Shown here: positions 6,035-62,400 of the stretch, in pieces
Position numbering within the stretch: position 1 is the stretch's first letter
Layout of the letters: every line of letters begins with the position of its first letter
From: a virus
Lineage: Duplodnaviria > Caudoviricetes
Direction: 5' to 3' (one strand)
Virus record (IMG/VR): IMGVR_UViG_3300031993_000048
Location: 1-64,000 of that record
DNA length: 64,000 nt
Notes under the pieces: generated by a model
The model's database searches: none
Told to the model about the DNA's origin: nothing
The model's input: only the letters and a program-made list of their open reading frames with translations
Program-made: the position numbers and the translations under genes

Positions 6035-6056
6035 TTGTTTCATCTCCTTGAACTGT

Positions 6057-7878: not shown

Positions 7879-7896
7879 CGAATCAGGAAAAAAGTG
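7879..7896 (-). promoter_or_regulatory. Conserved motif ACTTTTTTCCTGATTCG, copy 1 (candidate phage-specific promoter)
   Basis: Identical 17-mer at 8235-8251 (minus) and 9263-9279 (plus). Confidence 0.55.
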
Positions 7897-8234: not shown

Positions 8235-8252
8235 CGAATCAGGAAAAAAGTG
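8235..8252 (-). promoter_or_regulatory. Conserved motif ACTTTTTTCCTGATTCG, copy 2
   Basis: About 40 nt upstream of the 8197 start. Confidence 0.55.
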
Positions 8253-8339
8253 CGGGAAGGGCGGAGACGACCAGTTCCCCGGATCGTCGTAGCGGTGTAG
8301 CGGCGCTTCGTCGGGTCGGGTCTTCGTCGCTTCGACGTA

Positions 8340-9262: not shown

Positions 9263-9279
9263 ACTTTTTTCCTGATTCG
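9263..9279 (+). promoter_or_regulatory. Conserved motif ACTTTTTTCCTGATTCG, copy 3 (inverted, faces the SSB-like gene)
   Basis: About 85 nt upstream of ATG 9363. Confidence 0.55.
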
Positions 9280-33080: not shown

Positions 33081-33094
33081 AAGGAGAAAGACAC

Positions 33095-33412: not shown

Positions 33413-33816
33413 CCGATCCCGCGATCAGGCATCTGGTCGAGGTTCTCACCGCCGACATGCGTACGCGCATGTCCGGCGGGCTCGAGCGGTTCCTCACGCG
33501 CCTCGCCCTCGACGGCGGGCGCAAGGACTACGAGGAGTGGGCCGCGTCCCCGATGACGCGGACCTTCCTCGACGCGGTCAAGTCCCTCGCGGACACCGTG
33601 CCGCTCGCCGAACCGTCCGACCACGGAGGGCTCGCGAAGGCGTTCGGGTGCCTGTCGGCGCTGCGCCTCGTCGTGAACCTCGTAGAGGATCCGACGAAGG
33701 TGTTTCCGTCGATCTACGACGGGGCGGGCATGCTCATGTCGCGCACCGTCGACGGCACGCCGACCGCGTCCTACGAGACGCCTCCCACCAGCGAACCCGA
33801 ATCCACGGAGACATAA
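33409..33816 (+). CDS. Hypothetical protein, 135 aa
   Basis: ORF track; GTGA coupling. Confidence 0.7.
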   Translation: MTDPAIRHLVEVLTADMRTRMSGGLERFLTRLALDGGRKDYEEWAASPMTRTFLDAVKSLADTVPLAEPSDHGGLAKAFGCLSALRLVVNLVEDPTKVFPSIYDGAGMLMSRTVDGTPTASYETPPTSEPESTET

Positions 33817-33819
33817 GAC

Positions 33820-35196: not shown

Positions 35197-35210
35197 CCGG
35201 AACCGGACCT

Positions 35211-35256
35211 GTCCGCGCTCGCCGCAAGCCCCTCTGCGGTGGGCGCGGACTTTTTT
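35211..35256 (+). terminator. Intrinsic terminator after the scaffold gene
   Basis: GTCCGCGCTC...GGGCGCGGAC hairpin followed by TTTTTT. Confidence 0.85.
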
Positions 35257-35268
35257 GCTTTCTGGGGC

Positions 35269-35297
35269 TTGCGCGCGAGGCGCAGATGTGGTATCAT
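35269..35297 (+). promoter_or_regulatory. Sigma70-like promoter (TTGCGC-17-TATCAT, TGTGG extended -10) for the capsid gene
   Basis: Consensus match directly after the terminator. Confidence 0.75.
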
Positions 35298-35485
35298 AGG
35301 TGCCGACGGAGTAAATCGCCCTCCCCGCGGGGCACCTGAACTCGGGTCTATTCCGCGTGCCCGCGCGGCGCACCCGGCCACGTACAGGCCGGACAAAGGG
35401 TCTACTTTCGCGACAGCCCGCGCGAGATGCAGGAGACGCGTGTCTCCCGCGCAACCGTTCACGTTCCAAGAAAAGGAAAAAGACT

Positions 35486-37732
35486 ATGGCTACTTTGCCA
35501 GGTTATGACTCTGCCCGCGCCGCGCTGTCGGGCATCGAAGGTTTCAATGACGGAGCCGCCGCCATTCCCGGCCGCTCCGGCCCGTTCGCGAAGTTCCTGC
35601 TGCCCGGCATGGGCGACGAGGCTCGCTTCGGGATAGGTCCCGTGCGCAAGTCGTCCGGTTGGGTCGAGACCCAGCTCGGCCGCTACGCCGTGCAGGGAAT
35701 CCCCGCCGACCAGAAGCGCCGCTACGCCGGCCCCATCGCGGGCGCGTCGGTCGCCGAACAGCTCGAAGGCTGGACGCAGGCGCTCGACACGATCGCCGCG
35801 ACGCAGGCCAACACGATCCACGAGATCGCGACGATGCGCCTGTCGAAGTTCTGGATCAACATGATCAAGAGCGAGTCCTGGAAGCCGTTCAACGGCTGGG
35901 AGTCGAAGGTCACGATCTTCCGCGGCGGCCTCCTGCACCAGTCGGGCCTCTCCAACTGGCGCCGCATCATGCCGGTCCCCGAGCTCGGCGTCAACCATCC
36001 GTCGACCCTTCCCGGGTTCGAGACGGTCATGGGCACGACCGAGGAGCTGACGGGCGTCGGCTACGAGGCGGGCTGGGGCTCCGACTCGATCAACATCGAC
36101 CATCTGCGCAACGTGCCCAACGCGCCGCAGCAGGTCAAGCAGATCCTCGACGTCGGCGTCGACCAGGCGATCGCGCTCCGCGAGAGCTACAACCGCGAGA
36201 CGTACATCAACATGGCGTGCCTCATGCACCGCGCCTTCGTGATGTGCTGCGACTGCCAGCCCACCGAGGACGTCGGCTCGCGCGCGTTCATCTACGACCC
36301 GCACGTGGCGTGCGACGCCTTCCAGGCCGTCGTCGGCACGAACGTGCCCTCCGGCACGGTGCTCGTCGGCAAGGCCACGAACTCCGGCGTGGTGGAGAAC
36401 AACGACTGGGTCGCCCTCGTCGACGACCGCAGCGCCTTCACCAACAAGAAGGTGTTCGCGTTCCTCGACTCCACGACCCGCCTCGACTGCTACGGCCAGT
36501 ACCACGCCCAGAAGGACGTCGTCATCGACCCGTCCACGGGCATGGAGGCTCCGTTCGTGCTGATCGACGCCGGTCCCGCGGGCGAGACCCTCGAGATCGA
36601 GCCGCCGAACTTCGACATGCTCGAGCGCATGACGGACGAGTACGCGCAGCGCTGCCCCGAGGCCGCTGTCGGCCACGACGGCGACGTTCCCGTGTTCGCG
36701 ATCACGCTCAACCACAGCGACATCGACAAGCTCATCCGGGCGACGCCGATCGAGTGGGACGCGTGGCGCCGCGCCGAGCCGCAGGCGCTCATCACGCACT
36801 ACGGCATCAGCAAGGCGAAGGTCTACCGCCGCTGGGCGATCGTGAACGACACGAACCAGCTGCGCATGAAGCCGATCGCCTACATCTCGGAGTACACCTC
36901 CACGGAGGCGAAGAAGTACGGCAACGTCGGCTACCGCGACGGGGACGACACCTCGCTCCAGGGCCGCGCCGTCTACGTCTGCGTGGTCGTGAACCCGAAG
37001 ATGCTCTCGCCCACCCGCAAGGGCACGAACGGCTACTCCGTGCCGGTTCCGAACCCCGAGTACTTCACCGCGCCCCTCGCGCTGGCGAACGTCGTCATCA
37101 AGGACACGTTCATCAACCAGCTCGAAGGCCCGGCCCCGTCCATCGGCAACGGCACCGACTTCGGCCCGCAGCCTCCGTGCAACGGAACGTGGGGCTTCCT
37201 GAACATCCAGGACAAGCTCACGAACCCGTTCCGCCAGACGGGCAACTTCTACGGCCTCCTGCGCACGCACGTGAAGCCGACGAAGTACACCCAGGAGGCG
37301 GCGTGCTTCGTGTACGCCCGCGACGTCCAGGCGTTCAAGGCGTTCACGCAGGCCGAGAACCGGATCATCAACCCCGACTACACCGGCCTCTCGCAGAGCG
37401 CCGCCGTGGCCAAGGTCGAGTCCTCCGCGTTCACCGGCACGTCCGCGGTGACGACCCTCCCCGCCGGCAAGCCGATCGACCTGACGCTCGAGACCACGCC
37501 CCACCTCGCGCTCGAGCTGGGCTCGAAGGTCGAGCTGGCCAAGGACACCGGAGGCACGCTCTCGGGCAACTCCCCCGTGGTGGTGCTCGACGCGAGCCGC
37601 TGGCCGCGCGTCAAGGTGGCCCCGCTGTCGACCCTCACGCTCTCCAACGTGGGCATCGCCGACAACTACGTCACCTCCACGCACGAGTCGCACGACCTCA
37701 CCCTCACGGGCACGGTCCTCGTCGGCAAGTAG
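35486..37732 (+). CDS. Probable major capsid protein, 748 aa
   Basis: Follows portal and scaffold; own promoter and downstream hairpin; strongly biased codons; fold not confirmed. Confidence 0.65.
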   Translation: MATLPGYDSARAALSGIEGFNDGAAAIPGRSGPFAKFLLPGMGDEARFGIGPVRKSSGWVETQLGRYAVQGIPADQKRRYAGPIAGASVAEQLEGWTQALDTIAATQANTIHEIATMRLSKFWINMIKSESWKPFNGWESKVTIFRGGLLHQSGLSNWRRIMPVPELGVNHPSTLPGFETVMGTTEELTGVGYEAGWGSDSINIDHLRNVPNAPQQVKQILDVGVDQAIALRESYNRETYINMACLMHRAFVMCCDCQPTEDVGSRAFIYDPHVACDAFQAVVGTNVPSGTVLVGKATNSGVVENNDWVALVDDRSAFTNKKVFAFLDSTTRLDCYGQYHAQKDVVIDPSTGMEAPFVLIDAGPAGETLEIEPPNFDMLERMTDEYAQRCPEAAVGHDGDVPVFAITLNHSDIDKLIRATPIEWDAWRRAEPQALITHYGISKAKVYRRWAIVNDTNQLRMKPIAYISEYTSTEAKKYGNVGYRDGDDTSLQGRAVYVCVVVNPKMLSPTRKGTNGYSVPVPNPEYFTAPLALANVVIKDTFINQLEGPAPSIGNGTDFGPQPPCNGTWGFLNIQDKLTNPFRQTGNFYGLLRTHVKPTKYTQEAACFVYARDVQAFKAFTQAENRIINPDYTGLSQSAAVAKVESSAFTGTSAVTTLPAGKPIDLTLETTPHLALELGSKVELAKDTGGTLSGNSPVVVLDASRWPRVKVAPLSTLTLSNVGIADNYVTSTHESHDLTLTGTVLVGK

Positions 37733-37740
37733 CCGACGAA

Positions 37741-37774
37741 GGCTCCGCCGGGCGCTTTCTCCCCCGGCGGAGCC
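37741..37774 (+). terminator. Hairpin or terminator after the capsid gene
   Basis: GGCTCCGCCGGG/CCCGGCGGAGCC 12-bp stem; weak U-tract. Confidence 0.55.
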
Positions 37775-37807
37775 GACTCTCTTCAACCGGACACGGGAAC
37801 CGACGGC

Positions 37808-38773
37808 ATGAAGTACACTTTCGGAAAGGCCAAGCAGCTGCTTGCGAGGTCGTGCCACTCGAAGGCCGAGGACATAGGCGAGAAGATCAACATCGCCGTC
37901 CGCGCCCTCTGCGACACGAACCCCTTCGAGCACGAGTTTCTCCGGCAGGTGGTGCGCATGACGTCCGCGACTCCCGTGTTCAGCCTCCCCCAGGGGGCGA
38001 CGGGGCTGGTGCGCGTCTGCGTCAACGGACGCCCGACGACGCTGCACGGCCCCGATTTCCAGTTTCTCTCGTCCGGCCCCGGCGACCTCGACATGGTGCC
38101 CGGCGGCTACGAGAGGTTCGGCGGCGACGTGGCCGACCTCGGCACCTCGCCCGTGTGGATGCAGCCGTCCGGCTTCGGGTGGCTCGCTGCCACCTACAAG
38201 GGTTCGGCGCTCCAGCCTCCGATCACCGTCCACGCGACGGGGATGGACGGCGACCGGGTCACGTTCAAGCTGATGCCGAAGGCGGAGTCCGCTCCGCTCG
38301 AATACGACAAGGCGCACCCCGTGCGCACGATAGACAGCGTCGTCCTCGACCCGTCTACCGACAACTACATTTCGCTGTACATGACCGAGGTGCTGCCCGC
38401 GAGGAGCGAGTGCCTCGTCGCCCGGTACCATCCGGGCTTCCACGTCCCCGAGTTCAGGCGGTACAGGCTTCCGTGCCTTCCGCATCCGGGGCCGTACGAG
38501 ATCCTCGCGGAAATACAGTTCGAGCCTCCCGACCTCATCGACGACGAGGACGTGATACCGTTCCCGTCCCTCGAGCCGATCAAGTCGATGATCCTCTACG
38601 AATACTCGAACCAGAACCTCGAGGGCACCGCCGCGGAGGCGTACCTGAAGCAGGCGCAGGAGTGGCTCGCGAGGGCCAACCAGCGCAACCGCCTCCAGCA
38701 GGGCCCTGTCACCCTGAACGTGCCGTACGAAGGCTCCGTTGGCCAGCTGTGCGACGCGCTCGACAACCTGTAA
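37808..38773 (+). CDS. Putative head-tail adaptor or tail tubular protein, 321 aa
   Basis: Post-capsid position in podoviral order; helical N- and C-termini around a beta core. Confidence 0.5.
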   Translation: MKYTFGKAKQLLARSCHSKAEDIGEKINIAVRALCDTNPFEHEFLRQVVRMTSATPVFSLPQGATGLVRVCVNGRPTTLHGPDFQFLSSGPGDLDMVPGGYERFGGDVADLGTSPVWMQPSGFGWLAATYKGSALQPPITVHATGMDGDRVTFKLMPKAESAPLEYDKAHPVRTIDSVVLDPSTDNYISLYMTEVLPARSECLVARYHPGFHVPEFRRYRLPCLPHPGPYEILAEIQFEPPDLIDDEDVIPFPSLEPIKSMILYEYSNQNLEGTAAEAYLKQAQEWLARANQRNRLQQGPVTLNVPYEGSVGQLCDALDNL

Positions 38774-44404: not shown

Positions 44405-44433
44405 TTCCACGCCCCGGCATATTGTGGTATAAT
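44405..44433 (+). promoter_or_regulatory. Sigma70-like promoter (TTCCAC-17-TATAAT, TGTGG extended -10) for the giant gene
   Basis: Perfect extended -10 about 45 nt upstream of ATG 44478. Confidence 0.75.
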
Positions 44434-44477: not shown

Positions 44478-47400
44478 ATGCCGAGAAACCCGTTTGCCGA
44501 CCCGTTCACGAACCCCGCCGACGCGGGCGAATCCCTTTTTGGGCGCGATGGCGCGATGGCGCCCGCCATGCCCCGGCTCGTGCCGGCCGCCGACGAGATC
44601 GCGGACTCGTCGCTCTCGATTTCTTCCGCCCCGGATCCCCTGGCGCCTCGCCTCGACGACGATGACGACGAGCCGGACGTTCCGCAGTTCCAGTCTCCGT
44701 ACAAGGGCCAGGACCTCCTGTCCGAACCCATGGACAAGGAGAAGGGGCCGACGGCGTTCCAGCGCAAGGAGATAAACTGGTCCGACGGCGGGGAGGACCT
44801 GACCCGCCCGCGCCGCCGCAACGTCGCCCCCTCCGACTGGCTCGAGGTCGACTACCTGTTCGGGAAGAAGGAGGGCGCGTCGGGCAAGCCCGTCGAGGCC
44901 GCCAACGTGTTCGGGCGCCAGTTCACCCGCGACGAGCTCGAGCGCGACGAGGACGGCAGGAAGCTCCTCGGGCTCATGGAGTTCCGCCGGTCCGGCAAGG
45001 TCAACGAGGGCGGGGCGCTCGCCAACTTCGGCAAGGGGTTCTCCGACTGGGGCACCTCCGACATACCTTTCTACGGCTGGTTCGCCGACATCGGCACGAC
45101 TGTCGGCGACGCCATCGAGATGTCGCGGACGATCCGCAAGCTCCAGGACGGTGGCGAGGTGACGCCGCGCGAGGCGATCCGCCTGCGCACGCACATGCTC
45201 CGGCAGGAGCTCGAGAGCCAGCGCACGATGGCGCACCAGGTCGGCTCCACCGTCCGCTCGTCCGTGACGCTGGGCGCGGAGATCCTCGCGTCGTCCGCGA
45301 TAGGCGCGGGCATCGGCGCGATGTTCGGGGGCGTGGGAGCCCCGGTCGGCGCGGCGGTCGGCGCGCTGTTCGCCCCGATCCGCTGGCTCTTCGGCATCGG
45401 CGGCACCGCCGCGAAGGCCGGCGCGCGCAAGGTCGTCAACGTCGGGATGAAGCAGCTCACCGCGAAGATGGCGAGGGACCTCACGGCGGCCGAGCTCAAG
45501 ACGATCGTCCGCACGGGGGCCGCGACCTACGGCGAGGAGGGGGTCCGCTCGCTCCTCCGCGAAGGCGTGAAGAAGGGGCTGCGCGGGCGCGAGCTGTACC
45601 ATTCGCTCGCGGGCGAGCTCCAGTACGCGACGAGGATGTCCGACCCCGGCAGGATGGCCGCCCGCGCCCTGTTCAGCGCCGACTACCGGCTCGCCCTCGA
45701 GGGCGGGCTCCGCGCCGCCGTGGAGCAGAAGGCGCTCGCCAAGACCCTCGTGAACGCGACGAAGGACGACATCGCGCGGCTGTCCGTCAGGGAGCGCGCG
45801 AGGCTCGTGAACGAGGGCATCCGCAAGATGGTCGCCAACAACGAGTGGAAGCCGTTCGTGCAGGACTTCGCCAAGGGCGTGATGGTGGGCGACCGCACGG
45901 CCGCCGTCGACTTCGTGCGGAAGGGCGTCCAGGAGGCGACAGGGCGCACGCTCGTCGCCCCGCAGTACGCGCAGCGCATCCTCGACATCGCCGCGTCCAG
46001 CGTGGCGAAGGACATGGAGCTCGCCGCCGGCAAGCTCGCCTTCGCCAACCCCGTCCGGTTCTTCAGGTACTTCGGCGAGCACGCCGCGCGCGGCCTCGTC
46101 CAGTCGGAGCACGGGCTCTTCGGTGGAGCCCCGACGATCGCGCACAGCGGGTTCACCACGTTCGCCCGCGGCAAGGACGCGCTCAAGGAGGGCATCGGCC
46201 GCGTGTTCATAGAGGCCCCGATCCAGGGCGCGCTCCAGTTCGTCGGCGGGCCGCTCGCGCTCTCCCCGATATTCGCCGCCGCGTCCGGCTACAGCCCGAC
46301 CGACCTCACGGTGAAGGGGCAGCTCGGCTACCAGATCGACGCCCTGATCCGCGGCGACAGGGAGAAGATGGACACGGCGCGGCAGGCCGCGCTCGGCTCC
46401 GCGTTCGTCGAGTACGCGTCGGAGGCCGCCGGCCGGGGGCTCGGCGCGATGTTCGGCGGCGCGGTGGCGACCGCCGTCGGCAAGTCGCCGTCCGCCGTGG
46501 CCGAGGGCGCGAAGGCGATGGTGACTCCGGTCTCCCGCCGGATCGGCTCCGCGCTCGACCGTGCCGTGAAGGCCGTGTACGGCGAGGGCGACCTCCTGAA
46601 GAACGGCGTCGAGGGGTTCACGGGCCAGGCGTCCCGCGCCCTCCGCGGCCTCACGGGCCGCTCCGGCGTGAAGGCGTCGGTGGCCCGCGCCGTCCAGAAC
46701 CGCACGATAGACGGGTTCGACGACGCCACGAAGACCGCGCTCGCCCGGAAGGGCGTGAAGGACTGGAAGGGCTTCCAGAAGTTCGTCGCCGCGTCCGCCG
46801 CCGACGGCAACCGCATGCGCGCCGGCCTCAACTACTTCGGCCTCAAGCTGATGGAGCGCGGCATGACCCCCGACAGGGTGGTGCAGTTCTTCCGCCAGGC
46901 CGGCTATTCCGGGATCCTCGAGGAGATGGGCGAGGAGCGCGTCGGCGACTTCATGCGCGGGCTCTTCGGGTTCGACGACACCGCGTCCGACGCGACGTGG
47001 AAGGACAAGCTCCGGTCGATGTTCTCCGGCATCACGGACTTCGACCAGCTCGCGACGGAGTTCATCGCCTTCGCGATCCCCGGCGCGATCCGCCGCGGCA
47101 CCATATCGGCGCAGTCGTGGCTCGCGAACGGCGCGGTCGGGCAGGCGAGGGCGGCGGCCCAGGGCCTGCGGTACATGACGGACCTCGGGCGCGGCAAGGT
47201 GTACGCCGCGGTCGGCGGGGTCACGCAGGAGGACAAGGAGCGGATCGAGCGCCGTCCGGCGGAGTCGGCCGCGATGCGGGACGGCGTGCTGGGGACGACG
47301 AAGGACAACCGGAGCCGGATGTCGGCGAACGCCGCGGCCATGGCGGCGAACGCGGCCGGGATCGAGCAGGCGGTGCGCGACGCCGGCGGCCTGTCCGAGC

Positions 47401-50400
47401 AGGGCAGCTCGCCCGACGAGCGCGCGGCGTACGAGGCGATGCTCGCGCCCGTCCTGTCCGCGCAGGGCGAGGGGCAGATGAGGGCCGCGATGGACGAGCT
47501 CGCCGACGAGTACCTCGCCGCGGGGGACGAGGCGACGCTCGAGAGGACGATGGAGCAGACGGGGGCGACCGCGATCTTCGGCGAGGACGGCGTGGACGCG
47601 ATCCGCAGGGAGTGGCGCAAGGGCGCGGGGCACGAGTTCTCCGCCGACAGCGAGATCGAGGCGTCCCTGGCGGACTGGAAGGCGTTCGACGCGCAGTCCC
47701 CGACGGTCTCGAGGCGCGAGCCGGGATCGGTCGGCGAGGCGGTCGACGACATGTGCGCGCAGATCGCGGGCATGGACCGCAACGCGTCCGTGACGGCGGG
47801 CGAGGAGGACCGGGCGAACGGCGAGCGCGACGCGATGGTCGCCGACGAGAACGCCCGCGACGTCGCCGTCGAGGACGCGATGACGCTCGCGAGGTACCTC
47901 GGTCGCGGAGCGGTGAACTCGTCCCGCGAGATGAGCTTCGGCAGGCGCGTCATGTCGCGCATCGTCGGCATGCTCGGCGCCGCGTCCACGGGCGACCTGT
48001 CGCTCGCGGCGACCAGCCCGGCCGCGTGGCTCGCGCAGGACGAGGGCGTGGACAAGAACCTCCAGATGGCGCTCCTGCAATGCTATTCCGCCGGGCTCAT
48101 GTCCGGGTGGGCGAAGATGTCGGCCGGCCAGTCCGAGGCGCTGCGCCAGGCGGTCGGGTCGGTGGAGACCGCGGAGGAGCTTCGCCAGAAGCTGGACGCC
48201 CTGCGGAGGGAGCGGAGGATCTCCGACGACATATTCGACCAGCTCGAGGAGGCCGGCGAGGAGACGTTCCGGGCCCGGGTCACGGAGTTCATGACGGCGT
48301 ACATGACGGCGAGCGGCGTGGCCCTCGTCACGCGGCAGGACGCCGTGGACATGGCGCGGTCCATCGTGGCGAAGCGCCACGAGAAGGCGGGCGAGGCGTT
48401 CGAGAGGGACGAGGCGTGGTTCGCCCGCGAGGACATAGCGCGCGAGGTGGAGGCCGCGAGGTCCGACGTGATCGACGGCGTGATCGCGACGGCCAGGAAC
48501 TCCCTCGGCTACACGACGCACAGGGGCGCGGGGGACTACGGCACCTACATGACCGTCGACGTGGCGCAGGCCATGAAGAACGGCACGAGCGCCGAGGTGC
48601 TCGCCGCCATCCTCGACTCCCCGGCGTTCAGGGGCGTCGCCCGCGTGCAGAACGTCTCCGGCCTGTCGGAGCACGAGCGCGAGATGGCGATGTCGCTTTT
48701 GACGTCCGACGTCGCCGACCTCGGCGCGATCGCCGCGATCGAGACGGAAGGCGAGGGGAACGCCGACAGGGAGCTGACGGAGCGCGAGCTCGCCGAGGTC
48801 AACGCGGCCATGCGCGCGAACCCGAGCGACTACACGCCCGAGGCGTTCCAGAACCTCGCGAGGACGTTCGTGCGCCGCGTGAAGCTCGCCCGCGAGAACA
48901 TGCGGTCCACGTTCTCCAGGCTGGACGACGCAGGGAACAGGATCGTGGCGACTATCGCCCCGGCGGCCGGAGGGTTCGCCGTGGTGGAGACGGACGAGTC
49001 GACCGGGGCGACGACGCGGACGGAGGTCGCCGGGAGCCGCGAGGACGTCGAGGCGCAGCTCGCCTCGCAGGGCTTCGCGCTGGAGGAGCAGAGGCTCGTC
49101 ATATCGCAGGTGAAGACCTTCGCGTCGTCCGACGCGACGAGCCTCCTCTTCCTGCGCAGCGGGCAGGACCGCGAGGCCGTCCGCGACATCTTCAAGGACT
49201 CCGCCGGCGAGATCGAGGACGAGAACGTCCTTCCGCCGTGGTGCCGCAAGGAGCGGAGGGAGCCCGGCGGCCCGCTGGTGTGGAAGTATTCCGACGACCA
49301 GTCCGACCTCGCCGCGGAGGAGTTCAGGCGCGAGCTCGCCCTCGCCGACGAGTACGAGCGCAACGGCGACTCCTGGATGTACTATCTCGCAGGCACCGGC
49401 GCGTCCGCGAAGGACCGCAGGGCGCGGATGGCGGAGGCGAAGAAGATGCACGAGCGCGTGTACGGCGTGTCCGTCGAGGGCGCCTCGCCGACGAGCGGCT
49501 ACGAGTCCCGCGCCCGCCTGGAGCTGGAGCGCCTCGGGATCCGCCGCAGCTCCTCGGTCGGCACCGACCTCCAGCAGATCGGCATGCCGTCCGACGCCTA
49601 CGTGATGCCGGTCGACGCGGTGAACGCGAAGGACGTGGTCGTGCTGACGCCCGACTACTTCGCGCTGGGCCACGGCGAGGCCCTGCTGCGGCACGGCGTC
49701 CGGCACGCGCTCAACGCGTACGTCGCCGGCGCGGGCGAGGAGGCCGAGCTCCGCAACGCGCTGCTCGTGGAGGCGTACCGCGAGTTCCGGGGCTGCATCG
49801 ACGACATCGTCGCGGAGGCGGAGACGGCGCGCGGCGGGCGGGCGGAGGCGAAGAGGCTCCGCGCCGCGTACGACGAGCTGTTCCCGGCCAGGGCGGACGG
49901 GCTCCCGTCCACGCTCGACCTCGCGAAGATCGCGTCGTCCTCCCTGTTCTTCTCCTGCGACCGCGGGAACTACGAGGACGGCAACGGGTTCCTCCATTCC
50001 GCGGAGCTGTCGAAGGCGGCGGACCGGTTCCGCTCGACCGACATCTTCATGTTCTTCATGTCCGCCGTGGACGAGGCGCTCGGAGGGAAGGGCCTGTTCG
50101 ATCCGGCGCGCTCCAGCGCGGGCGGGCTCGCCCGCTACCGCGCGGCGTTCGCCCCCGACTTCGTGAAGCTGCGCGAGGCCCGCAAGTCCGCCGTGTTCGG
50201 CGGCCAGAGCGGGGAGATGAAGAACCCGTTCGTGCGCGGCTTCAGGCTGCGCGACGGGCTCACTGCGGACGAGGTGCGGAGCGGGGCCGGGAAGTGGGTC
50301 GTCCCCGACGCGGCCATCGGCCTGAAGGAGCCGACGAGCGACAGGCTCCGCGCCCGCGACTTCGACGGCAAGATCGGCGGCTACTGGGGGCTCTACGCGT

Positions 50401-53400
50401 CGAGCGGCCAGCGCTTCGCGCAGGCGTACGGCTCGCTCACGGGCGAGCGCGACGCCGTGCTGTCGTCCGCGAGGGCCTTCGAGATGGCGAGGCGCTCCGA
50501 CCTCTGCGGCGGCGAGACCGCGGGCGGGACGGAGACGAGGGCCCGCATGAGCGACACGGTCGCGCCCCTCGCGAAGAGGGAGCTCCGCAGGCTCTCCGAG
50601 ACGCTGTCGGTCGCGGACATATCACCGGCGTCGCTCGAGAGCGCGGGGCAGGCGATGCGCTCGATAGCGACGAGCCTCATGGCGGGGGCGAAGGACAAGG
50701 CCCGCACGGAGGCCGCGCTCGTCCGCGAGTTCGAGGGCTGGCTTCTCGGGCGCGGGGTCTCCAAGGCGATCGCCGCCGAGATGGTCGCGGCGTTCGAGAG
50801 GGCCACGGTGCGCCCGATCGCGAAGAAGACCGACGAGGAGGCGAAGAACGAGGAGGCCGACGCGCAGAACGCGGAGACCGAGGAGATCGAGAACCGCGAG
50901 TCCACCAACGACCCGGACAACGAGCGGCGCGTCGGACAGTTCATAAACGACCAGAACATCATGGCCGTCTCCGGCTTCCTGAAGTTCATCATGCCCGCCG
51001 AGTGCGGGGACTCCGCGCCGACGTTCCTCCGGCTCCGCGCGGACCTCTCCCGCCCGGAGATGTACGGCGAGCTGGCGGGCGAGAGGGCGTCGTGGAAGGA
51101 GGACGTGGACGCGTTCGTAAGGATGCTCGGCGTCAACTCCGACCTGCGGAACATCGACAGGGCGCTCGCGTCCAACCTCGTGAACCTCTCGTCGCGCGAG
51201 GACACCGACCGGATGCTCGACCGCGTCGCGACGCTCCTGTGGGAGAACGGGAGGCGCGACTACGCCCTCGCCGTCGCCGCGATCCGCAACGTCGATCCCG
51301 CCAACGGCGAGCGGAGCAAGATGCTCGAGAGGCTGTCGCAGGCGACGGCGGTCACGCCGATGCGCCTCGACCGCACCGGCCCGGCCAAGCCGTTCGGGAT
51401 CGACTTCATCGGCTCGGGCGCGCGGGCGGACGTCGTGCCCGGCGTCGTGGCGTCCGGCTACACGTCGCTCTCCGAGACGGTGCTCAAGGGGATGTTCAAG
51501 GCGGACGGGTCGCTCGCGAAGGACGCGGGCGCCGCGCTCGCGAAGGTCGTCGCGTACGTCCGGTCCGACAGCTTCGCGTCGAAGCGGCTCGCCCCGATCC
51601 TCGGAACTCCGGTCAAGGTCGGCTTCGTCCACGTCACGTTCGACAAGGCGCTGTACGAGACGCTCGAGGCCGTCGCGAACGGCAAGGGCGCGACGACCCT
51701 GGCGGAATACACGGACGCCGTGCTCGCCGTCGCGGACATAATCAGGGCGCGCTCCGCGGCCGCCGCGGACGTCCTGGACGGAATCCTCGGGGCGGGCAGC
51801 CAGTACGCCCACATGCTCCGTTCCCCGTACGTCCTGTCCGAGGTCGTGCGCGTGGCGCTTTCGGCGTACAACATGAAGCGCGGTACGTCGTACGGGCGCA
51901 ACCTCCGCGAGGCCGCCGTGATGAAGCTCGTCAGGCTCGCCAACTACCTCGTGGCCGACCCGTCGCAGCGCGGCAAGGTGTCGTGGCAGACCAGCGTGCA
52001 GCGGTGCTCCGGCATCGTCGAGGACCTCGTCGTCGAACCGGTCGAGGGGCTGCTGCTCCGGCTCGGGGTCAACCCCGCGTCGACCACGCTCGAGGCCGAC
52101 CTGGCGAAGGCCCTGGAGGGCAAGGACGCCGACTGGGTGCGCGACACCCTGCGCCAGATGGCGAAGGACAAGCTCGCGACGGACATGCACCTCGACTGCG
52201 GAGCCAACCCGGCGGAGGCGATAAGGAAGCGCGACAAGGCGGGGGACAAGCCCTGGACGGGCCTCAACAACGCCCCGACGTTCGTCCCCGGCGCGTACCG
52301 CTCCGCAAGCAACCTCGACGTCCTCGTGGAGGCGTACCTCGCCGGCGCGCCACGTTCCAGCGCGACGCTCGGCGGCCGCGCGGCGAGCGCCATAGAGGGC
52401 GCGAAGAACAAGTCCGTGCAGACTCTCCCCTCGATGCTCCCCGGGTTCGTGAGGTTCGCGAACAGCGTCCTGTGCCAGGCCTCCGGCGTCACCGACGAGC
52501 TTGCCGGGAACGGCAACCGCTGGCGGGACAGGTCGAATCCGATCGTGTCGTTCGTCGGCGCGAAGGACTCCGGCGGCAGGCTGCTTCGCCGCGAGTCGGT
52601 GGCGGGCGCGCTCCGCAGCGCGATCGACGCGGAGAACAGCGACCCCGAGTACGTGCCTACGCACGTCCTCGTGCCGTTCTTCCGCGCCGACAAGCCCGCG
52701 TGCTACGCCCTGCGCATACCGGTCGGCACGATGCGCGCGATGATCGAGGCGGCCGTCGGGAACGAGGAGGTCGTGCGCCAGCTTCCGGCCGATCTCGCGG
52801 CCGTCGTGGAGGAAGTCGCGAAGACGAAGGGCGAAGACCTGAAGGGCAAGGAGTACGTCGCCTACAAGAAGAAGTTCCACCAGGCGGCGTACGCCCTCGC
52901 CGCGTCCGCGCTCGGCCAGTCGCAGATCGACCCGAAGCGCGTCCCCGTCCTCTCGTCGTGCGGCCCGCTCATCTCGACCTACGTCGACAGGGGCGAGGGC
53001 ACCGACCCGAGGGCCGGCTGCTACTTCGTCTCGATGGTGGGAGGGTCGACGGGCGCGTCCATGATGGGCGGCTACATCACCGCCGGCGTTCTCCCGTCCC
53101 GCGTGTCGGGCATGGGCGAGGGATCGTGGAGCCAGGCGCAGAAGCTGCACATGTTCTCCGTGAAGCGCGGCGTCAACTTCAAGAAGGGCCAGGCGTCGGC
53201 GATCGGCCTCGGCTTCTACGCCGACGGACGGTCGGACGACAGGTCGCGGACCAACGGCGAGATCGTCTCCAACCACGCCGTGCGGTTCGCCCAGCGGCAG
53301 GGCCGCCGGCAGCTCGAGGCGCTGCTCTCGCAGGAGTTCAAGGACGCGGGGCTCTCCGGCCAGAACCTTCTCGATCCGGTGCCGGCCCTCGAGGACGGCG

Positions 53401-56400
53401 CGACGGACGAGCAGAAGGCGGAGCACGCCGAGCTCGAGCGCATCCACGACAAGGCGGTCGACGTCGCGAACGCGTTCCTCGCGAACGCCACGATCGCGGT
53501 CGACGACCTCGAGACGAACAAGGCGGGGCTCTTCGGATCGTCGTGCGGCGTCAAGGTCGAGAAGGGCGCGACGAAGATCGAGGTCGGCGGCGTCACGGTC
53601 GCGGAGCTCGCAGACGGCAAGTGGAGGTCGTCCGTGCCGGGGTTCGAGTTCGACTTCGACGGCGAGGGCGTGAAGAACGGGCGGGCCCTCGTCATGCCGG
53701 TCCTCGCGGCGCTCGCGGCGAAGCAGGGCGGCAGGGTCGACGCGGCGGGCATCGAGGGGACGTGGGTCAGGCCCGACGGCTCCGAGTTCACCGGAAAGCT
53801 CGGCGACTCCGGGCTGCTCTCCGAGGGCGAGACGCTCGCCTGCGAGATCGACAAGGAGACCGGCGCGGCGCGCGTCGTGTTCTTCACCCGCGACATGTAC
53901 GGGCAGGTCGTCGCCAGCAACGCCAACTCGTCGAAGGCGTCGGACCACCACGTGTTTCCGACGAACGCGACCCGCGACCACTGGATGATGGAGGCGATAA
54001 CGAACGCCACCACGCCGGGCGGGCGCAACGGCTCGCGCCGGTTCATCGACGCGCACGCCGGGTACTCGCTCCTCCGCCTCGCCACGCTCGCGCACAACGG
54101 CGAGCTGATGCGGCGCGAGATGCGCAGGGACCAGGAGCTCGTCGCCCTCCTGAAGGCGCACCCGAACGACAACCAGGTGCGCGACGCGATCTCCGACAGG
54201 GCCAGGGCGTTCCTCGAGAAGCAGACGCTGGTCGGGTACTACGGGAACCACGGCATCATGGTGCCGTCCGGCGGCAAGCTCGTGTCGGGCGACGAGTTCG
54301 CGCACACGGTCGAGATCGAGTGGGCCCCCGGCACGACCGACTACGACAGGGGCTGCTACAAGCCCGCGACCGTCTACACGCGGGAGGAGGCCGAGGCGTT
54401 CGGCGCGTCCCGCAGCTGGGCGTCCGGCTCCGTGAACGCGGACGTGGAGGGGTTCCGCTACGGGCTCTACTTCGACGAGGCGGCGCTCGACAGTCTGCTG
54501 TCGCAGGTCGCCCCGGACGAACAGGCTCTCGCCCGCTTCGCCCGCGCGGGAGTGGACGCCGCCGTCGCGGGGCGCATGGCGCGGCTGGCCGCGTTCATGG
54601 AGGACCTGGGAGGCCCGCTCGAGTCGCAGGAGCAGCGGACGAAGAGGGACGCGCTCCTCGCGTGCGCCTACGACTACACGGGCAAGAAGGCGAGCGAGAA
54701 TGTCCGCGCGAAGGACATCCGGTTCGACGACCTGTTCGTCAGGTCGTGGGACGGCACGACGTCGTTCGACTATGCGGCTGTCGACCACGAGGGCCGTGTC
54801 TCGCTGCACGACGGCGCGAAGCACCTGTACCTCGGCGGCTCCGTGTTCCACGCCCACCGCTCGCCCTCCGGCAACATCGCGGCGGCGTGCGGCACGGTGC
54901 GCGCGACATGCCCGTACTCGTTCTTCCCGGACGGCAGGATCGGGCGCGAGTCCAAGTACGCGCTCGATCCCGTCACCACGGCGACGCAGGGCTCCGACAT
55001 GGACGGCGACTCCGCGTCCCTCCAGTTCTACGACTACGGCGCGGAGGACCTCGTCGACGCGCCGGCGATGCGCCGGTTCACCGACGCCGTCCTCGGCGGG
55101 GCGGACCCGTTCGACGTCGCGAAGGAGATGAAGTGGACGGTCGTCCAGGACGGCATGGAGGTCGTGGACCCCCGCGTTCTCCGCGCCGTCTCGCGTCTCG
55201 TGTTCTCCGCCCAGGCGAACAACTACCGCGAGGCCGCCACGTTCCACCAGGGCTACACGAGCGTGACCGCGCTGGCCGGTCGCAAGGCGACCGGAGCCGA
55301 CTTCGCCGTGCACTACCGCGAGAACCCGCCGGCCGACGGCGTGTTCGCGGACTACGGGTTCGCCGGGCGGCACCCCGTCGGGACGGACGCCGTGTTCTCC
55401 GAACCGTTCGGGGCGGAGACGCTCGCCCGGTTCGAGACGCTCGCGGGCCGCAAGGTCCTCGGCCGCCTGTCCGCCGAGTTCAAGGCGAAGTGGTTCGTCG
55501 AGGGCAAGAAGATGAACAAGGTCCTCGAGGCCATCGTGGACGAGATCCGGGGCAAGCCGAAGAACAGCCTCCTCAAGATGGGCGAGGCGGCCGACGCGTC
55601 CGACGCCGCGTCCGACTCCGCGAAGGCGCGCGGAATCTCCGTCGCGTCGCAGTCGACCATCCTCCGTGCCATCGTGACCGACCTGTTCGGGACCGGCGAC
55701 AGGATGACGTACGACGAGGCGAAGGGGTATTCCGCCGTCATCGACCTCATAGCCCACATCGACGGCGTCTCGAACAACCTCTTCGACACGCTGAAGAAGA
55801 TGTTCGCCACCCGCGCCGGATGGACGACCTCGATGCTGCCGTTTTTCCTCGGCCGCCTCGCCGTAGACGCGCGCGAGGAGGCGGGCAGGGGCGGGCCGGT
55901 AGACTCGGCGTTCGTCCTCGCGGAGGCGGCGAAGTTCCTCGAGGAGCTGACCCGCGTCGACGGGAAGATCCATACGTCCGCCACGGTGGCGGGGCGGCTC
56001 GCGTCGCTTCTCGATCCGGTCAGGCGCGACGTCGCGGCCGCCCGGCTCGCCGAGCTGTACAACGGGGAGCAGAAGGACAAGGGCGCGACCGTCATGACGC
56101 AGTACCGCGGCAGGCCCAAGACCGCCGACGAGATCATAAACGACTTCTGCCGCAAGCGCCTCGAGGGCGAGGCGTACTCGATGACGCGCGACGCCAAGGC
56201 GGTGTACGCCGCCGCGTACATGACGGACGCCGCGCATCCGGTCGACGAGTCCGACTACGCCGTCTACGACCTCGTGGCGTCCTCGATGGACGACAGCAAG
56301 GCGCTGTGCCGCGCCGTCGACTACATGAAGGTCGCGGGCAAGGGGCTCGCGGACGTCGGGCGCTACGCGCTCAAGGCCGAGGGGGAGGAGACGGACGAGA

Positions 56401-59400
56401 CGATCGCCCGCGACCCCGCGCTGCGCCTCCAGGACCTGGTGGTGAAGGGCTTCTCCTCGCAGGTGGCGAACTGGCTCGACTCCACGGAAAACCTCCAGCT
56501 GGTCCTCGACGGGCAGCTCGGACGCAGGCCGTGGGACTTCGCGGCGGGGTCCGCCCTGCGCGACAACGCCGACCGGTTCGTCCATCTGATCGGAGCCGTG
56601 CGCGGCGTCGACCCCGCTCTCGTGCGCGCCATCGCGACGAAGACGACGACCGAGCAGGTCCCGCAGGGCGGGAAGGTCGCGGACCGGACGGTCGAGACGG
56701 CCTCCACGGAGACGCTCCTCCGCCGCATAGCGACCACGGTGGCCGTGTACGGGGACCTCGCCGCGACCGGAAGGGCGAAGGTCCCGGCGATCGCCCGGCT
56801 CCTCTCCTCGATACGCGTCGGGGACAACGGCGTCTCCCTTTCGCTCTCGTCGCGGGAAACCTCCGCCGACATCGAGACGCTCCGCGCCGGGTTCGACCTC
56901 CTCGCCGGCCAGGGCGGGGCGAAGGGCTACAGGATATACGAGCGCAACGAGGCGGGCGAGGCCGCGGACACGGGCCTGCGCGTGAGCGGCGCGGAGCTCG
57001 CGAAGCTCCTCGTCCTCCACGCGTCGCTCACGGGCACGTTCGGCGCGGCGCAGGACTACGTGACGCAGTCCAACCTCCCCGCCGTGTTCGGCGACGCGAG
57101 GCTCCGCTTCCTCGAGCGGTGCCGCCACGAGATCCTGGACACGGCCGAGATCGCGAGCGCCCTCGGGCTCGCGCCGGTCGACGTCGCGCGCACGAGCGCC
57201 TACGACCTCTTCGGCGACGTCGAGGTCATCCGCACCATCGGGAGGGAGCAGGCGAGGGACGTGGAGCTGCCGTACCTGCGCGAGGAGCTCGCCGCCGCGA
57301 AGAAGGCCGACGACGCGTCGCGGACGCGCACGGTGCTGCGCCGGGGCAAGGCCGTCAAGAAGGGGCTCGAGGACGGCGAGGAGGCGTTCCAGAGCTTCCG
57401 CACCTATCCCGCCCTGTCCGTCCTCCGCGGCGCCGCCGGGCTCACCCGCTACGGCGCGGAGGTCAACAACGCGCTCGAGGCCCGCCTCGGGCCGCACGAC
57501 CTGTACCGCCGCTGGATGTCGGACGACCCGTTCGCGGAGCTGACGCAGGACGTCCCCGGGCCGGAGACGGTCGCGTCCGCCGAGATCGGCTTCCCGGTCG
57601 AGGAGAAGTCCCCGCGCGTCGACGCTTCGGCGGTGGACACGTCGTGGGCCGATCCGCTCGAGACCCGCACGGCGTTCCGCCGCCCGGGCGAGACGGAGGA
57701 CGCGTACGTGTTCCCGCGCCCCGCGCTGTCGGAGGACGGGAGCCGCGTCGTGTTCTCCACGGACGACATGGTCGACTCCCTCGAGAAGGCGTACAACGGG
57801 CTCCTCGACGCGCTCATCGACGACTCGAAGTCCAACGAGGCCCGCGCCGAGCGCAAGCGCCTGTACAACGAGCTGAACCCGACGAAGAAGATCCTGACGC
57901 GCAGGCCCGACCTCGTGGCGTCGGACCTCGCGGACATCCTCTCGGAGGCCGCGAGGCGCGACGCCGACGTGTACGACGCGCTCGACAAGATCGGCGACAG
58001 GCTCGCGGTCCACCCCGACCCGAGGATCGCGGCGGCCATCGACATCGCGAACTCCCGCCTCGGGGCGGAGGGGCGGAACGGGATCGCGCGTCCGTCGGCC
58101 CCTGCGACGAGGGCGAGCTTCATGGGAGGCGCGACGCGCGCCCGGGTCGAGGCCGACCCCCGCTCCGCGTTCGCGGACAGGGCGGAGCGCGTGGCGCCCG
58201 GCTTCACGTCGCAGCAGATGATGTCCGCGAAGACCGCTGTCGTCGGCGCGTTCGAGAAGGCGTTCGACGGCGCGGAGGTCACGGAGGTGCAGGGCAAGGA
58301 CGGCGCGGAGACGAACCTCCTCAAGGTGACGCGCCGGATCGCGAACGGCAGGCAGATCGTCACGTACGTGGCGATCGGCTCCAGAATGGGCGACACGCTC
58401 GGCATGGAGGCCGCCGCGGACTCGATCGCCGCGCTCCTCAACGCCCGGAACGGCGGGTCGCTCACGGGCGAGGCCGTCATACGCGCGTTCGGCGCGGCGA
58501 ACGTCGCCAGGCTCGCCGACATCATGCGGCGCACCGGCGCGCAGACCGGAGAGTCCGACACGACGAGCCTCGACTTCGCGCCGTTCATGTCGGGCGTGAT
58601 CCGCCTTTCCGACAGGGCGGACTTCACGACGCTCTTCCACGAGTACTACCACCAGATGGTCGCCGTCTACAGGAAGCTCGGCATCCTCGACCCCGACACC
58701 GAGCGGAGGCTCAACGAGGACTTCGGCGGCGAGGAAGGCGCGGCGGAGATGTTCGGCCGCTACCTCTCCGGCGTCGAGGCGGGCGCGGACGACGTGGAGC
58801 TCCGGGACTTCATGGGCGCGGACGGGCTCACCGACGCGCACCTCCGGCTGTTCGCGGACTTCCGCCGCAGGGCCGCCGACATCGCGCGCGGCATGTTCCG
58901 CGGCATGGACGCCGACGGCGCCGCGCACTTCGTCGCGCTCCGCATCGTGCAAGGCGAGGTGACGGAAGAGGAGGCCCTGCGCATCGCCGAGCCGTCCGCG
59001 GCCGACGTGGAGAACCTCGAGCGCCAGCTCCAGGGGCTCGAGTCCCGCCCGCGCCTCGACGTCCTCACGGACGAGCAGATGGCGGACGCGATGTCGATCA
59101 GGGAGGCCGCGCTCGCCGCGCTGGCGTCCGGCGACGCCGGCGCGATCCGCGCGGCGGGGCTGCGCACGCTGGCGTTCTTCCAGAAGAAGACGCCGTCGGC
59201 TCCCGTGTCCAGGACGACGGACTCCGAAGCCCGGGACGAGGAGCGCGGGGAGCGCGCGGAGGACGTCGACATCTCCCGCGTCTCCGGGTTCATCAGGAGG
59301 GCGCTCCTCCGGTACGAGAGGGACGGCATGGGCGAGGACTTCGCCGAGTCGATGCGCCTGTATCGCGAGTTCCCCGTGGTCGGGGACGCGGCGAGCGGCC

Positions 59401-62400
59401 CGAACGCCGCCCTGTTCTACACCGTGCGCAGCTTCATCGCGCACGTCGCGGAGGCGGAGAACATCTCGATATACAGGGAAGACGGGTCGCTCACGCCCGC
59501 CGGCGAGAAGCTCATGTCGAGCGAGACCGTCGGCGAGCTCGCCATGCGCTTCGTCAACAACGCCACGCAGGAGCGCCGGTCGCAGGACCGCCGGCAGGGC
59601 GTGGAGTGGGCCTCGTCCGCGTGGGCGTTCAGCCGCGCGCTCGAGAGCGTCGCGCCCGGGACGTACGAGCGGTACTGCGCCCTGCTCGCCCGCAAGAGCG
59701 CGGAGGCGTTCCGCCGCCTCGGCGAGTCCCTGCTCGCCCGTCCCGGGAAGACGCAAGACGACATAGACGCCGCCAACGAGTTCATCGCGAAGTCCGGGGA
59801 GATCGAGAACTTCGTCCGCCACGTGGCGAGGGGCGAGGACGTCCGCTCGCTGCTGCCGTTCGACGTCGAGTCCGGCGGAAACCTGCACGGCCTGTTCCTC
59901 GCGTACTTCACCGGAGGCGCGAGGTTCCAGCGGGACGAGGAGGGCGAATACCTCTACCCGAAGGGCCCGGTGCGCCCGTACTCGCGGGAGCTCGACCACA
60001 CGTCCCGCCTCGAGACCGGGGACCCGGCGCTCGATCCGCTCGTCGACCTCGCCTACAACTACGCGGCGCAGGCGTTCTCCGTCGCGGAGGCCGCGCGCAG
60101 CTACCGCAGGCAGGTGCTCGGCGAGGGCAAGGACGGGGAGGCCGCGGACGAGGAGCGCCCGGAGGGCGTCGGCGAGACCGCCGGCCCGGCGTCCATCTCG
60201 TCCGAGGAGGTCTCCGAGTCGACGAAGGGCCTCGAGGAGGCGCTGCCCCCGGACGCGCCGCTCGACGTCAACGCGTCCCCCGCGGCGACGGCGCCGTCCG
60301 ACTTCTTCGCGAAGGTCGACACGACGCTCACGACGCCGGAGTGGATCCTGGCGAACCCGGGCAAGTGGCTCGAGTCCGACATGCAGCGGAACCTGTCCGG
60401 CGCGTCCATGCGCGACATGATGACCGACCACGCCGTGAAGGCGGCGACGGAGCGGCACTACCGGCTCGCGATGGACTGGGTGCAGTTCTTCGGCATGGAC
60501 ACGCACGTCGGCGACGGGGTGCGCAAGGTCGAGATCGTGGAGTCGAGGCTGGGCAGGAACGCCCAGGGCGACTTCTCGGTCTCGGAGGGGAACGCCCATT
60601 CCGTGATGCGCTTCTCGCAGACGCGGGGCGCGCTGTTCGGCGCGTTCGCGTGGCAGGAGAAGAGGGTCGGGGAGGCGCTCACGACCGACGACATCCGCGA
60701 GCTGCACGCGGTCGGGCGCCTCGTGAAGCTCATCGCGAACCGCCAGTCCGCGGACCTGCTCGGGATCGAGATCGGGCACCTCGCCGTGCCGGGCGCGGTC
60801 GAGATGCTGCGCAGGGACGACTACGCCGACTTCCTCTCGAGGGGGCGGCTCCTCGAGCGCGTCGCCGACTCGGGCTACCGCCTGAACGCCCTCGAGGACC
60901 TGCTGCGCCGGATCGTGGACGACGTCCCGAAGTCCGTCCTCGACGCCGGGTTCTACGACGCGGTCGTCGGGGCGCTCCGCAAGGCCGCGCTCCGGTCGGG
61001 CCCCGGAGGCGCGGAGCTTCCGCCGGAGGCCGTGAACGAGAACATGCTGCGCGCGCTCGAGAGGGCGGGCGTCGTCCACCGGTCGAAGGGCACCGGGCGC
61101 GCGGTCGTCTGCGTCTCGGCGAAGCGCATGCTCGACGCGTGGAACGCGTCGGACGCGAAGCGCAAGCTCCGGGACGCCGGGCGGCCGGAGAAGATGCTGA
61201 ACCCGTACTACTGGGCCGACAGGTTCGCGAGGGCCGCGAAGGACCTGAACAACGTCGCGGCGAAGTCCACGTACCTCACGCTCGGCGAGGGGTCGCGGTT
61301 CACGCTCGCCGGCACGAGCCGCTTCTGGTGGCACGGCGGGACGGGCTCCCACAAGTTCCAGGTCGACGCGTACCAGAACGCGATCAGGGCGTTCGAGGGG
61401 ATGTCCCCGTCGAGCGTGGACGTCCTCCGGGCGAAGCAGTCGGAGCTCTTCGAGATCATCGAGGCGAGCCGCGACCCGTCGGTGCTGCGCCGCCAGGCGT
61501 TCTCGAAGAAGGGTGTCTCCCGCCTCTCCGACCGCGAGCTCCGCTACCTCGCCTACCTCATGGGGCTCACGACCCGCGGCGACGAGACGCGGTTCGACGC
61601 CGCGGGGTTCGCGCGCGACATCGCGGCGGGCCGGTACGAGACGTTCGACCGCGACCTCAAGGTGCCCTGCACCATCCGGCGCGACGCGACCGTGCTCGAC
61701 ATCCGCCTCCAGATCGCGGAGCTCGTGTCGAGGAAGACGTTCTCCGAGAACCTCTCCGCGCTGACCGCCGAGGAGCGCCAGGACTACCTCAACGCGCAGA
61801 CCGCCGCCGACGAGCTCCGCGAGACGCTCTCGCGCGACGTGCCGGGGCGCGTGACCGCCCGCAGCGAGATGGAGGAGTTCGACCGCACCGGGCGTCTCGG
61901 CGACTCGCGCACCGCCGCGGAGTCGCTCATCGAGATGTGCAAGGAGCTGACGACCGCCGAGCGGTTCCGCGGATGCCTCGCGCAGATGCTCGCGGCGGTC
62001 TCCGCCGACGGCACGCCGTCGTTCGTCGTCGCCCCGACGGAGGCCGCGGTCGGCGTGGACCGCATGCCGGACGAGTACTGGGGCGCGCTCGCGCGCCACG
62101 TCGCGAGGTTCCTCGGGCGCAAGATCCCGACGATCGGCTACGACGAGGGGCTCTCCGGCGCGGAGAACATGCGCCGCATCCACAGGCAGCTCTCCGAGGG
62201 CGACCAGAAGCTGTACGGGAAGATGAGCGCGTCGAAGTACGGCGGGGGCCGGCTCTTCCAGGGCGACATCCTCTGCCGCCTGGACGACCGGGACGCCGCC
62301 GGGAACGTGGACGAGGCGACGAGGGCGCTCGGCGGAGAGGCCGCGTGCTACATGAAGCAGCTCCTGTCGGCGCTCCGCGCGCCGACGCAGAGCGCGGCGT

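Follow-up and report, generated by a model that had tools for sequence, protein, structure and literature searches.

The giant gene and its product

The virus record IMGVR_UViG_3300031993_000048 of IMG/VR (Duplodnaviria; Caudoviricetes) is 77,601 bp long, with a CheckV completeness estimate of 81%. Its first 64 kb were analysed here and are referred to as the window. The right-hand part of the window is occupied by a giant gene, read in a single plus-strand frame that is open from position 44433 (ATG at 44478), passes the end of the window and closes at 65612 of the record. Since the guanine plus cytosine (GC) content by codon position is 0.67/0.48/0.97, in a genome of about 70% GC, this is taken as the true coding frame. 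Residues of the 7,044-amino acid (aa) product are numbered from the ATG at 44478, and the features of the locus are collected in Table 1. Very probably, the middle of this chain is a relative of cellular RNA polymerase (RNAP) that is complete within the one polypeptide.

Invariant residues in the middle of the chain

The first-pass annotation of this DNA, made from the letters alone, had proposed an embedded two-barrel RNAP from two short motifs, and the positions it gave for them are exact. FHAHRSPSGN starts at residue 3457 (nucleotide, nt, 54846) and TQGSDMDGDS at residue 3503 (nt 54984), 46 aa further on, which places the arginine at R3461 and the three aspartates at D3507, D3509 and D3511. 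The upstream lysine candidates of QKLH..FKKGQ also lie where it had put them (K2889, H2891, K2903), and all three residues are invariant in the full-length homologs described below. Further downstream, SNNLFDTLK, which the first-pass annotation had likened to the AVDxxK motif of RdRPs, gives D3770 and K3773.

The family to which the giant protein belongs is very rare: 24 clusters (6,338-7,638 aa) were found among 5.8 billion proteins, and 21 representatives among 1.84 billion. Our literature searches found it undescribed. A full-length alignment of the 24 homologs was used to examine conservation. Identity in the core (searched with aa 2785-3985) drops to 29% among these members, and the elements K2889-x-H...K2903-G-Q, R3461-x-P-S-G-N, Q-G-S-D3507-x-D3509-G-D3511-S, D3770 and K3773 are invariant in 24 out of 24. 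When relatives down to about 26% identity are included, 30 of 31 keep K-x-H...K-G-Q, R-x-P-S-G-N and Q-G-S-D-x-D-G-D-S, together with the downstream motif H-x-D-x-x-S-N-x-L-F-D-x-x-K-x-x-F-A-x-R-A-G-W. The conservation of the three aspartates, which the first-pass annotation had named as a check on its proposal, is therefore borne out at both depths. The far relatives P0035 (602 aa) and P0036 (2,768 aa) retain R-T-P-S-x-N...G-x-D-H-D-G-D-K. In the segment 3454-3513, 22 of the 60 positions are invariant, versus 4.9% for the whole protein, and this segment ranks third of all 60-aa segments. A bare D-x-DGD proves nothing by itself, because about 0.25 occurrences are expected by chance in a protein of such length and composition; the one at D3507-D3511 is the sole D-x-DGD of the record (open reading frames, ORFs, above 150 aa in all six frames).

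Structure predictions

Two models were computed, both from shallow alignments: model 1 covers aa 2610-3809 (12-row alignment; predicted local distance difference test score, pLDDT, 64.6), and model 2 covers aa 3290-3830 (17-row alignment including distant relatives; pLDDT 81.2, predicted template modelling score 0.76). Residues 217-538 of model 1 match QDE-1 (residues 667-921), RDR2 and a long series of generic double-psi β-barrel (DPBB) domains, among them VAT-N, designed DPBBs, Cdc48 N-domains and the barrels of formate dehydrogenase; entries for P74 gp62, P23-45 gp96 and plant Pol IV/V are placed lower. Because the generic DPBB matches cover region ~217-538, it is predicted to be a DPBB with a large insertion, and it bears the invariant lysines. 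The connector that follows holds an invariant F-R-Y-G at 3326-3329, which is kept in the distant P0036.

For model 2, the best match in the PDB by both aligners was gp66, the virion RNAP of a crAss-like phage, over its residues 1262-1661. The match covers 277-280 residues and reaches beyond the barrel alone; the gp66 range spans the DFDID motif, the bridge helix and the trigger loop. In the prediction a strand leads into the R-x-P loop, two strands and a short helix follow, and the D-x-D-G-D loop and one more strand come last; the same motif order is found in E. coli β′ 420-470. By eye, a local likeness can be seen between Y-R-I-P-N-Q-G...T-G-S-D-F-D-I-D-K of gp66 and H-R-S-P-S-G-N...Q-G-S-D-M-D-G-D-S of the giant protein; at the same motifs E. 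coli β′ reads N-R-A-P-T-L-H...N-A-D-F-D-G-D-Q. The motif that contains SNNLFDTLK (3756-3787) lies 250-275 aa past the triad, the same spacing as the trigger loop of gp66 when aligned ranges, not residue pairs, are compared. Within it H3760, D3762, S-N-x-L-F-D3770, K3773 and F-A-x-R-A-G-W are invariant (nt 55755-55823).

Among the predicted viral structures of BFVD, most of the top 17 matches of model 2 are crAss-like phage proteins, as judged from identities assigned by protein length. Among them are the second half of gp66 and, from cr106_1 and cr111_1, the proteins that bear the RNAP; the top four matches have probabilities of 0.82-0.98 with E values of 4e-3 to 2e-2.

Two of the features that mark the single-chain clade of the two-barrel superfamily (QDE-1, crAss gp66, P23-45 gp96/gp64, YonO) are seen in the predictions: a β′-like DPBB with a metal-binding D-x-D-x-D loop (a loop modelled here at low pLDDT) and, upstream in the same chain, a predicted β-like DPBB with conserved basic residues. 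The first-pass annotation would have given up its proposal had there been no DPBB fold around the motif or no conservation of the Asp triad. A DPBB is predicted at the lysine motif, the region of the triad is modelled in a form that best matches gp66, and the triad is conserved, so that the two-barrel RNAP reading is supported.

Weighing the polymerase interpretation

The explanation that best accounts for these results is a two-barrel RNAP core within a giant protein that is packed in the virion, ejected at infection and used to transcribe the first phage genes; we give it a probability of roughly 0.7. In its first component, the presence of a polymerase fold in the giant protein, we have strong confidence. 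Residues ~2800-3830 would form the single-chain core. A β-like DPBB with two invariant lysines would be followed by a connector of ~270 aa, then by a β′-like barrel whose invariant D-x-D-G-D loop would bind the catalytic Mg2+, and then by a helical region resembling the bridge helix and trigger loop. We infer that such a core would be catalytically active and would use a DNA template. The giant gene would be expressed late by host RNAP and its product packed into the virion. After ejection at infection, the muramidase and the membrane segments would breach wall and membrane, and the polymerase module, either whole or freed by the HEYYH peptidase, would transcribe the early genes, probably starting from an AT-rich 17-mer at the divergent early region. 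Packaging and delivery are suggested by the fused lysozyme, the membrane segments, the place of the gene after capsid-like and adaptor-like genes, and precedents in other phages; judging from these, the phage probably injects the giant protein with its DNA.

A more far-reaching and distinctly speculative version would make the 7,044-aa chain a one-protein infection machine. It would combine a muramidase or swappable payload, an envelope channel, a self-processing peptidase and, at the channel, a cellular-type RNAP (DxDGD with Gly) that reads the genome as it enters, starting at AT-rich promoters of its own, and assists in drawing the DNA inward. On this view the lineages of Crassvirales and P23-45 would be joined by a further, independent one, a deep branch of the single-chain two-barrel polymerases.

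Several results weigh against the polymerase interpretation. First, comparisons at the sequence level connect the family with no RNAP. Pfam and PHROGs searches of the giant protein, in three pieces, returned no polymerase domain, including no match to RNA_pol_Rpb1/Rpb2, DPBB_1 or 3D. No relative was found by phmmer with the 181-aa and 1,200-aa core against PDB sequences, no match by tblastn with the core and with P0036 against 50,697 phage records, and nothing by a scan of IMG/VR with the single giant protein. Alignment of the family profile by hhalign with gp66 alone, and with a profile of seven crAss sequences built from GenBank records, was non-significant. When hhalign was restricted to the catalytic segments, R fell on R and triad on triad over 74 columns, with P 0.048 and one of 30 column shuffles scoring higher. 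Secondly, Foldseek with the whole of model 1 (1,200 aa) gave no significant match in the PDB and no RNAP among the matches listed (best E 0.5), and gp66, at rank 1 for model 2, has a non-significant E of 0.53. The catalytic loops (R-x-P-S-G-N and triad) have pLDDT below 50 in both models; apart from them, model 2 falls under this value only in some short stretches at the surface or the termini. The structural match to gp66 is one of aligned ranges, and superposition of the triad and the lysines is outside its reach. Thirdly, one relative, P0034 (3,024 aa, L022:125-9199), is without the Asp triad, with Q-A-A-S-A-G-G-N-T in its place and H-K-P-S-C-N instead of R-x-P-S-G-N, while its lysine motif and downstream motif are kept. 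Finally, neither terminase nor portal was recognised by hidden Markov models (HMMs) in the record, and the podovirus-like character of the phage is a lead only, drawn from language-model likenesses.

Four other explanations were considered. The one that survives best leaves the polymerase reading unchanged and concerns the type of virion: the phage might be long-tailed and the giant protein its tape measure, instead of a short-tailed phage with the giant protein as an internal protein for ejection. Tape measure proteins often end in muralytic domains. In P23-45, the tape measure protein gp96 houses an RNAP together with a metallopeptidase and membrane domains. Against this stand the neighbouring genes, whose products resemble podophage capsid proteins (a lead only, at 0.84-0.86) and the head-tail adaptor of SU10 (0.97-0.98). 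No tail tube, sheath or chaperone gene was recognised. Moreover, 7,044 aa would imply a tail well over 1 micrometre long, if one extrapolates from P23-45 (800 nm for 5,002 aa). We consider the tape measure unlikely.

It is also improbable, in our estimate, that the fold is real and the enzyme is something other than an early-gene transcriptase, for example one that makes replication primers, copies RNA templates like QDE-1 or synthesizes DNA like PolD. The closest structural relatives do include the RNA-dependent QDE-1 and RDR2, gp66 uses single-stranded and denatured DNA in vitro, and the large ORFs yielded neither a recognisable replicative polymerase nor a primase. A delivered enzyme, however, fits better with the fusion to a muramidase and membrane segments and with the place among structural genes; phage virion proteins with a two-barrel fold are, on precedent, transcriptases, and a multi-copy AT-rich motif is present at the early region.

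A structural relic, that is, a polymerase-derived fold kept for packaging or ejection in which catalysis has been lost, seems quite improbable. P0034 demonstrates that the triad can be lost, and gp66 crystallized in a self-inhibited form. That relative comes from a 9-kb contig, where it starts just behind a stop, and may be a copy that is inactivated or in decay. The catalytic residues are the most invariant positions of the 7,044-aa protein in relatives at 26-30% identity, as one sees for an active site. Least probable is that the DxDGD loop belongs to a DPBB that is no polymerase, such as a wall-degrading barrel of the RlpA/MltA type, and arose by chance or convergence: a barrel of this kind would go well with the lysozyme in the chain, the fold is common enough for many generic DPBB domains to match the first barrel, and the bare motif is expected 0.25 times by chance, but the two barrels stand in the order β then β′ with R-x-P upstream of the triad, the gp66 match extends beyond the barrel, whole-RNAP chains and not lytic transglycosylases head the PDB and viral lists, and DPBB_1 and 3D have no Pfam match.

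Relation to known polymerases

The first-pass annotation had described virion-packaged two-barrel RNAPs as known mainly from crAss-like phages. This description leaves out gp96 of P23-45 (PMC10770324). In gp66 of the Cellulophaga crAss-like phage phi14:2 (PDB 6VR4), DFDID lies at 1361-1365, the bridge helix at 1529-1559 and the trigger loop at 1598-1636; in vitro the enzyme transcribes single-stranded and denatured DNA, and the crystal is of the self-inhibited form (bioRxiv 10.1101/2020.03.07.982082). The giant protein would work like gp66 and is not a member of its family. Crassvirales RNAPs are delimited by homology to gp66 orthologs together with DFD[IV]D; the giant protein has no PHROG match, and at the fourth motif position it carries Gly, as in cellular RNAPs, where the crAss proteins have Ile or Val. 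Its connector is ~270 aa long versus ~140 aa in gp66 and QDE-1, and with 7,044 aa it is larger than all crAss RNAP-bearing ORFs retrieved (4,245-5,801 aa). It also differs from Crassvirales in that the RNAP is placed mid-chain beside a peptidase motif and a lysozyme, in a genome of ~70% GC with non-Crassvirales gene content.

In the Thermus phage P23-45, the tape-measure virion protein gp96 (5,002 aa; PDB 8H2M/8H2N) unites a two-barrel RNAP bearing DFDGD with a metallopeptidase and membrane domains; the genome is GC-rich, and the pre-early promoter motif read by the virion polymerase is AT-rich (PMC10770324). The giant protein resembles it in several respects: a predicted two-barrel RNAP with DxDGD, a peptidase motif and membrane segments in one giant protein, and an AT-rich motif in a GC-rich genome. 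The P23-45 type has its RNAP at the N-terminus of the tape measure, whereas the module is central here (aa ~2800-3830 of 7,044). No sequence detectably shared with the gp66 or the P23-45 family was found.

Cellular RNAP distributes β and β′ over two subunits, whose counterparts would be one chain in the giant protein. The QDE-1/RDR family (PDB 7Y7P, 7W84) is cellular, RNA-dependent and ~1,000-1,400 aa long, with no sequence similarity to the giant protein. The virion RNAP of N4 (Schitoviridae) has a T7-like right-hand fold and not a two-barrel one. It is a giant protein of ~3,500 aa that leaves the virion along with further ejection proteins and initiates transcription (PMC13434306), a role analogous to the one proposed here.

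Experimental work on virion-delivered two-barrel RNAPs is limited to two phage groups, the crAss-like phages and the relatives of P23-45. The present family has no detectable sequence kinship to either, yet it keeps the canonical cellular DxDGD. It would represent a third architecture, with the polymerase mid-way in a 7,000-aa chain and a peptidase motif and muramidase elsewhere in it. The family lends support to the view that many phages become independent of host transcription through single-chain polymerases concealed in giant proteins of the virion. It would likewise add a data point for the evolution of the barrels of RNAP, QDE-1 and PolD. By means of fold, a ~100-kb phage lineage with almost no recognisable genes becomes partly readable.

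Candidate promoters

An extended -10 element that includes the TG (TGTGGTATAAT, 44423-44433) precedes the giant gene and is the sole TGnTATAAT of the record. The complete 100-kb IMG/VR relative G001, whose core is only 27% identical, has the same extended -10 directly upstream of its giant gene (~22321, minus strand), one of nine such elements in that genome. That both genomes have it ahead of the giant gene agrees with transcription by host RNAP, and the element is a candidate host sigma70-type promoter of the giant gene.

The AT-rich 17-mer ACTTTTTTCCTGATTCG occurs in three exact copies in the record, only at the low-GC divergent switch region, where they face outward. G001 has four copies (56708, 56841, 58045, 59182) of a different but similar motif, a T-run plus CCT followed by TTGCG, which point into homologs of the left-arm genes of the record. 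The two genomes share the type of motif and not its letters. We see about an even chance that the 17-mer is the promoter of the giant-protein polymerase; if it is, enzyme and 17-mer make up a testable enzyme-and-promoter pair.

Other parts of the giant protein

In the Pfam and PHROGs runs on the three pieces, the sole match was a sub-threshold one to DUF6861, at aa 254-311 of the TTG-started query piece, in the region of the Gly/Ala-rich segment. The region of the HEYYH motif has no Pfam match; the segment 4706-4765 around it ranks seventh for invariance among 60-aa segments. In this conserved patch HEYYH is followed by E-E-G-A-A-E-M-F. A hydrophobic helix is found by hydropathy at aa 6246-6265 (63213-63272), inside the block ~5800-6690, which is possibly the envelope-spanning part.

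At the C-terminus of the giant protein there is a Phage_lysozyme domain (Pfam, E 7e-24), and the last ~350 aa (record 64575-65612, beyond the window) are its least conserved part. Precomputed Pfam labels, which come without positions in the proteins concerned, vary among the relatives: lysozyme, NADAR (PF08719), PF08010, PF08902, or none. If these domains are C-terminal in the relatives, the C-terminus may be a swappable payload, possibly an anti-defence one in the NADAR cases.

Table 1. Features of the giant gene, its product and their surroundings (positions of the window unless marked as record)
Feature	Position	Strand	Basis or remark
Giant gene	44478..64000 in window, to 65612 in full record	+	21-kb ORF; protein P0002, 7,044 aa from ATG
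Perfect extended -10 element TGGTATAAT, preceded by TG	44425..44433	+	45 nt upstream of giant-gene ATG
Gly/Ala-rich hydrophobic segment, probable membrane segment, aa 269-309	45282..45404	+	hydropathy scan
Predicted first barrel (β-like, DPBB-B), aa ~2826-3147, large insertion	52953..53918	+	holds invariant K2889 (53142), H2891, K2903-G-Q (53184)
Connector between barrels, aa ~3148-3419, mostly helical	53919..54734	+	secondary structure of model 1
Predicted second barrel (β′-like, DPBB-A), aa ~3420-3517	54735..55028	+	R3461-x-P-S-G-N from 54858; D3507/D3509/D3511 at 54996-55010
Helical region after catalytic barrel, aa 3518-3830; candidate bridge helix and trigger loop	55029..55967	+	structural alignment with gp66
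HEYYH, zincin-type metallopeptidase motif, aa 4721-4725	58638..58652	+	motif scan; conserved patch
Most conserved block of the protein, aa ~5800-6690, past window end	61875..64000	+	conservation profile
17-mer ACTTTTTTCCTGATTCG, copy 1, facing right arm	9263..9279	+	sequence scan
17-mer, copy 2, facing left arm	8235..8251	-	sequence scan
17-mer, copy 3, facing left arm	7879..7895	-	sequence scan
Papain-family C1 peptidase	18993-19808	+	E 2e-9
1,063-aa protein with InlB B-repeats	26069-29260	+	E 3e-22
Protein with YadA-head repeat	record 66240-68030	+	E 6e-7
DUF5672 protein	record 71841-73889	-	E 2e-10

Genomic surroundings

The giant gene lies downstream of capsid-like and adaptor-like genes. 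The ORF at 35357-37732 resembles podophage capsid proteins (N4 gp56, P22 and SU10 types) with a language-model score of 0.84-0.86, a lead only, and the ORF at 37808-38773 resembles a cluster that carries SU10_adaptor, with a score of 0.97-0.98. The SU10_adaptor HMM had no match in the record; it gave none in control genomes either and is uninformative. Terminase_6N had no match in the record or in G001, and HMMs recognised no polymerase among the neighbouring genes. When about 25 other ORFs of the record were searched with PHROGs and Pfam, few were recognisable: apart from a weak transposase match, the searches gave only a C1 peptidase, InlB B-repeats, DUF5672 and a YadA head. In G001 the block 29922-38773 followed by the giant gene is kept in synteny, as are genes of the left arm.

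A contig of 25.6 kb with a 63%-identical core (CAVEVC010000159.1) is part of a metagenome-assembled genome labelled 'Clostridiales bacterium'. Given the ~70% GC of the window, this label may be a binning artefact, and no reliable host can be taken from this contig.

The AT-rich switch region also contains a degenerate tandem array at 8301-8420, made of at least 6 copies of a 16-nt unit (CGG..TTCG), and a 46-nt perfect-centre palindrome at 8553-8644; together they are possibly an origin or a regulatory region. ARAGORN predicts an 89-nt tRNA-Val(GAC) at 7459-7547 on the minus strand.

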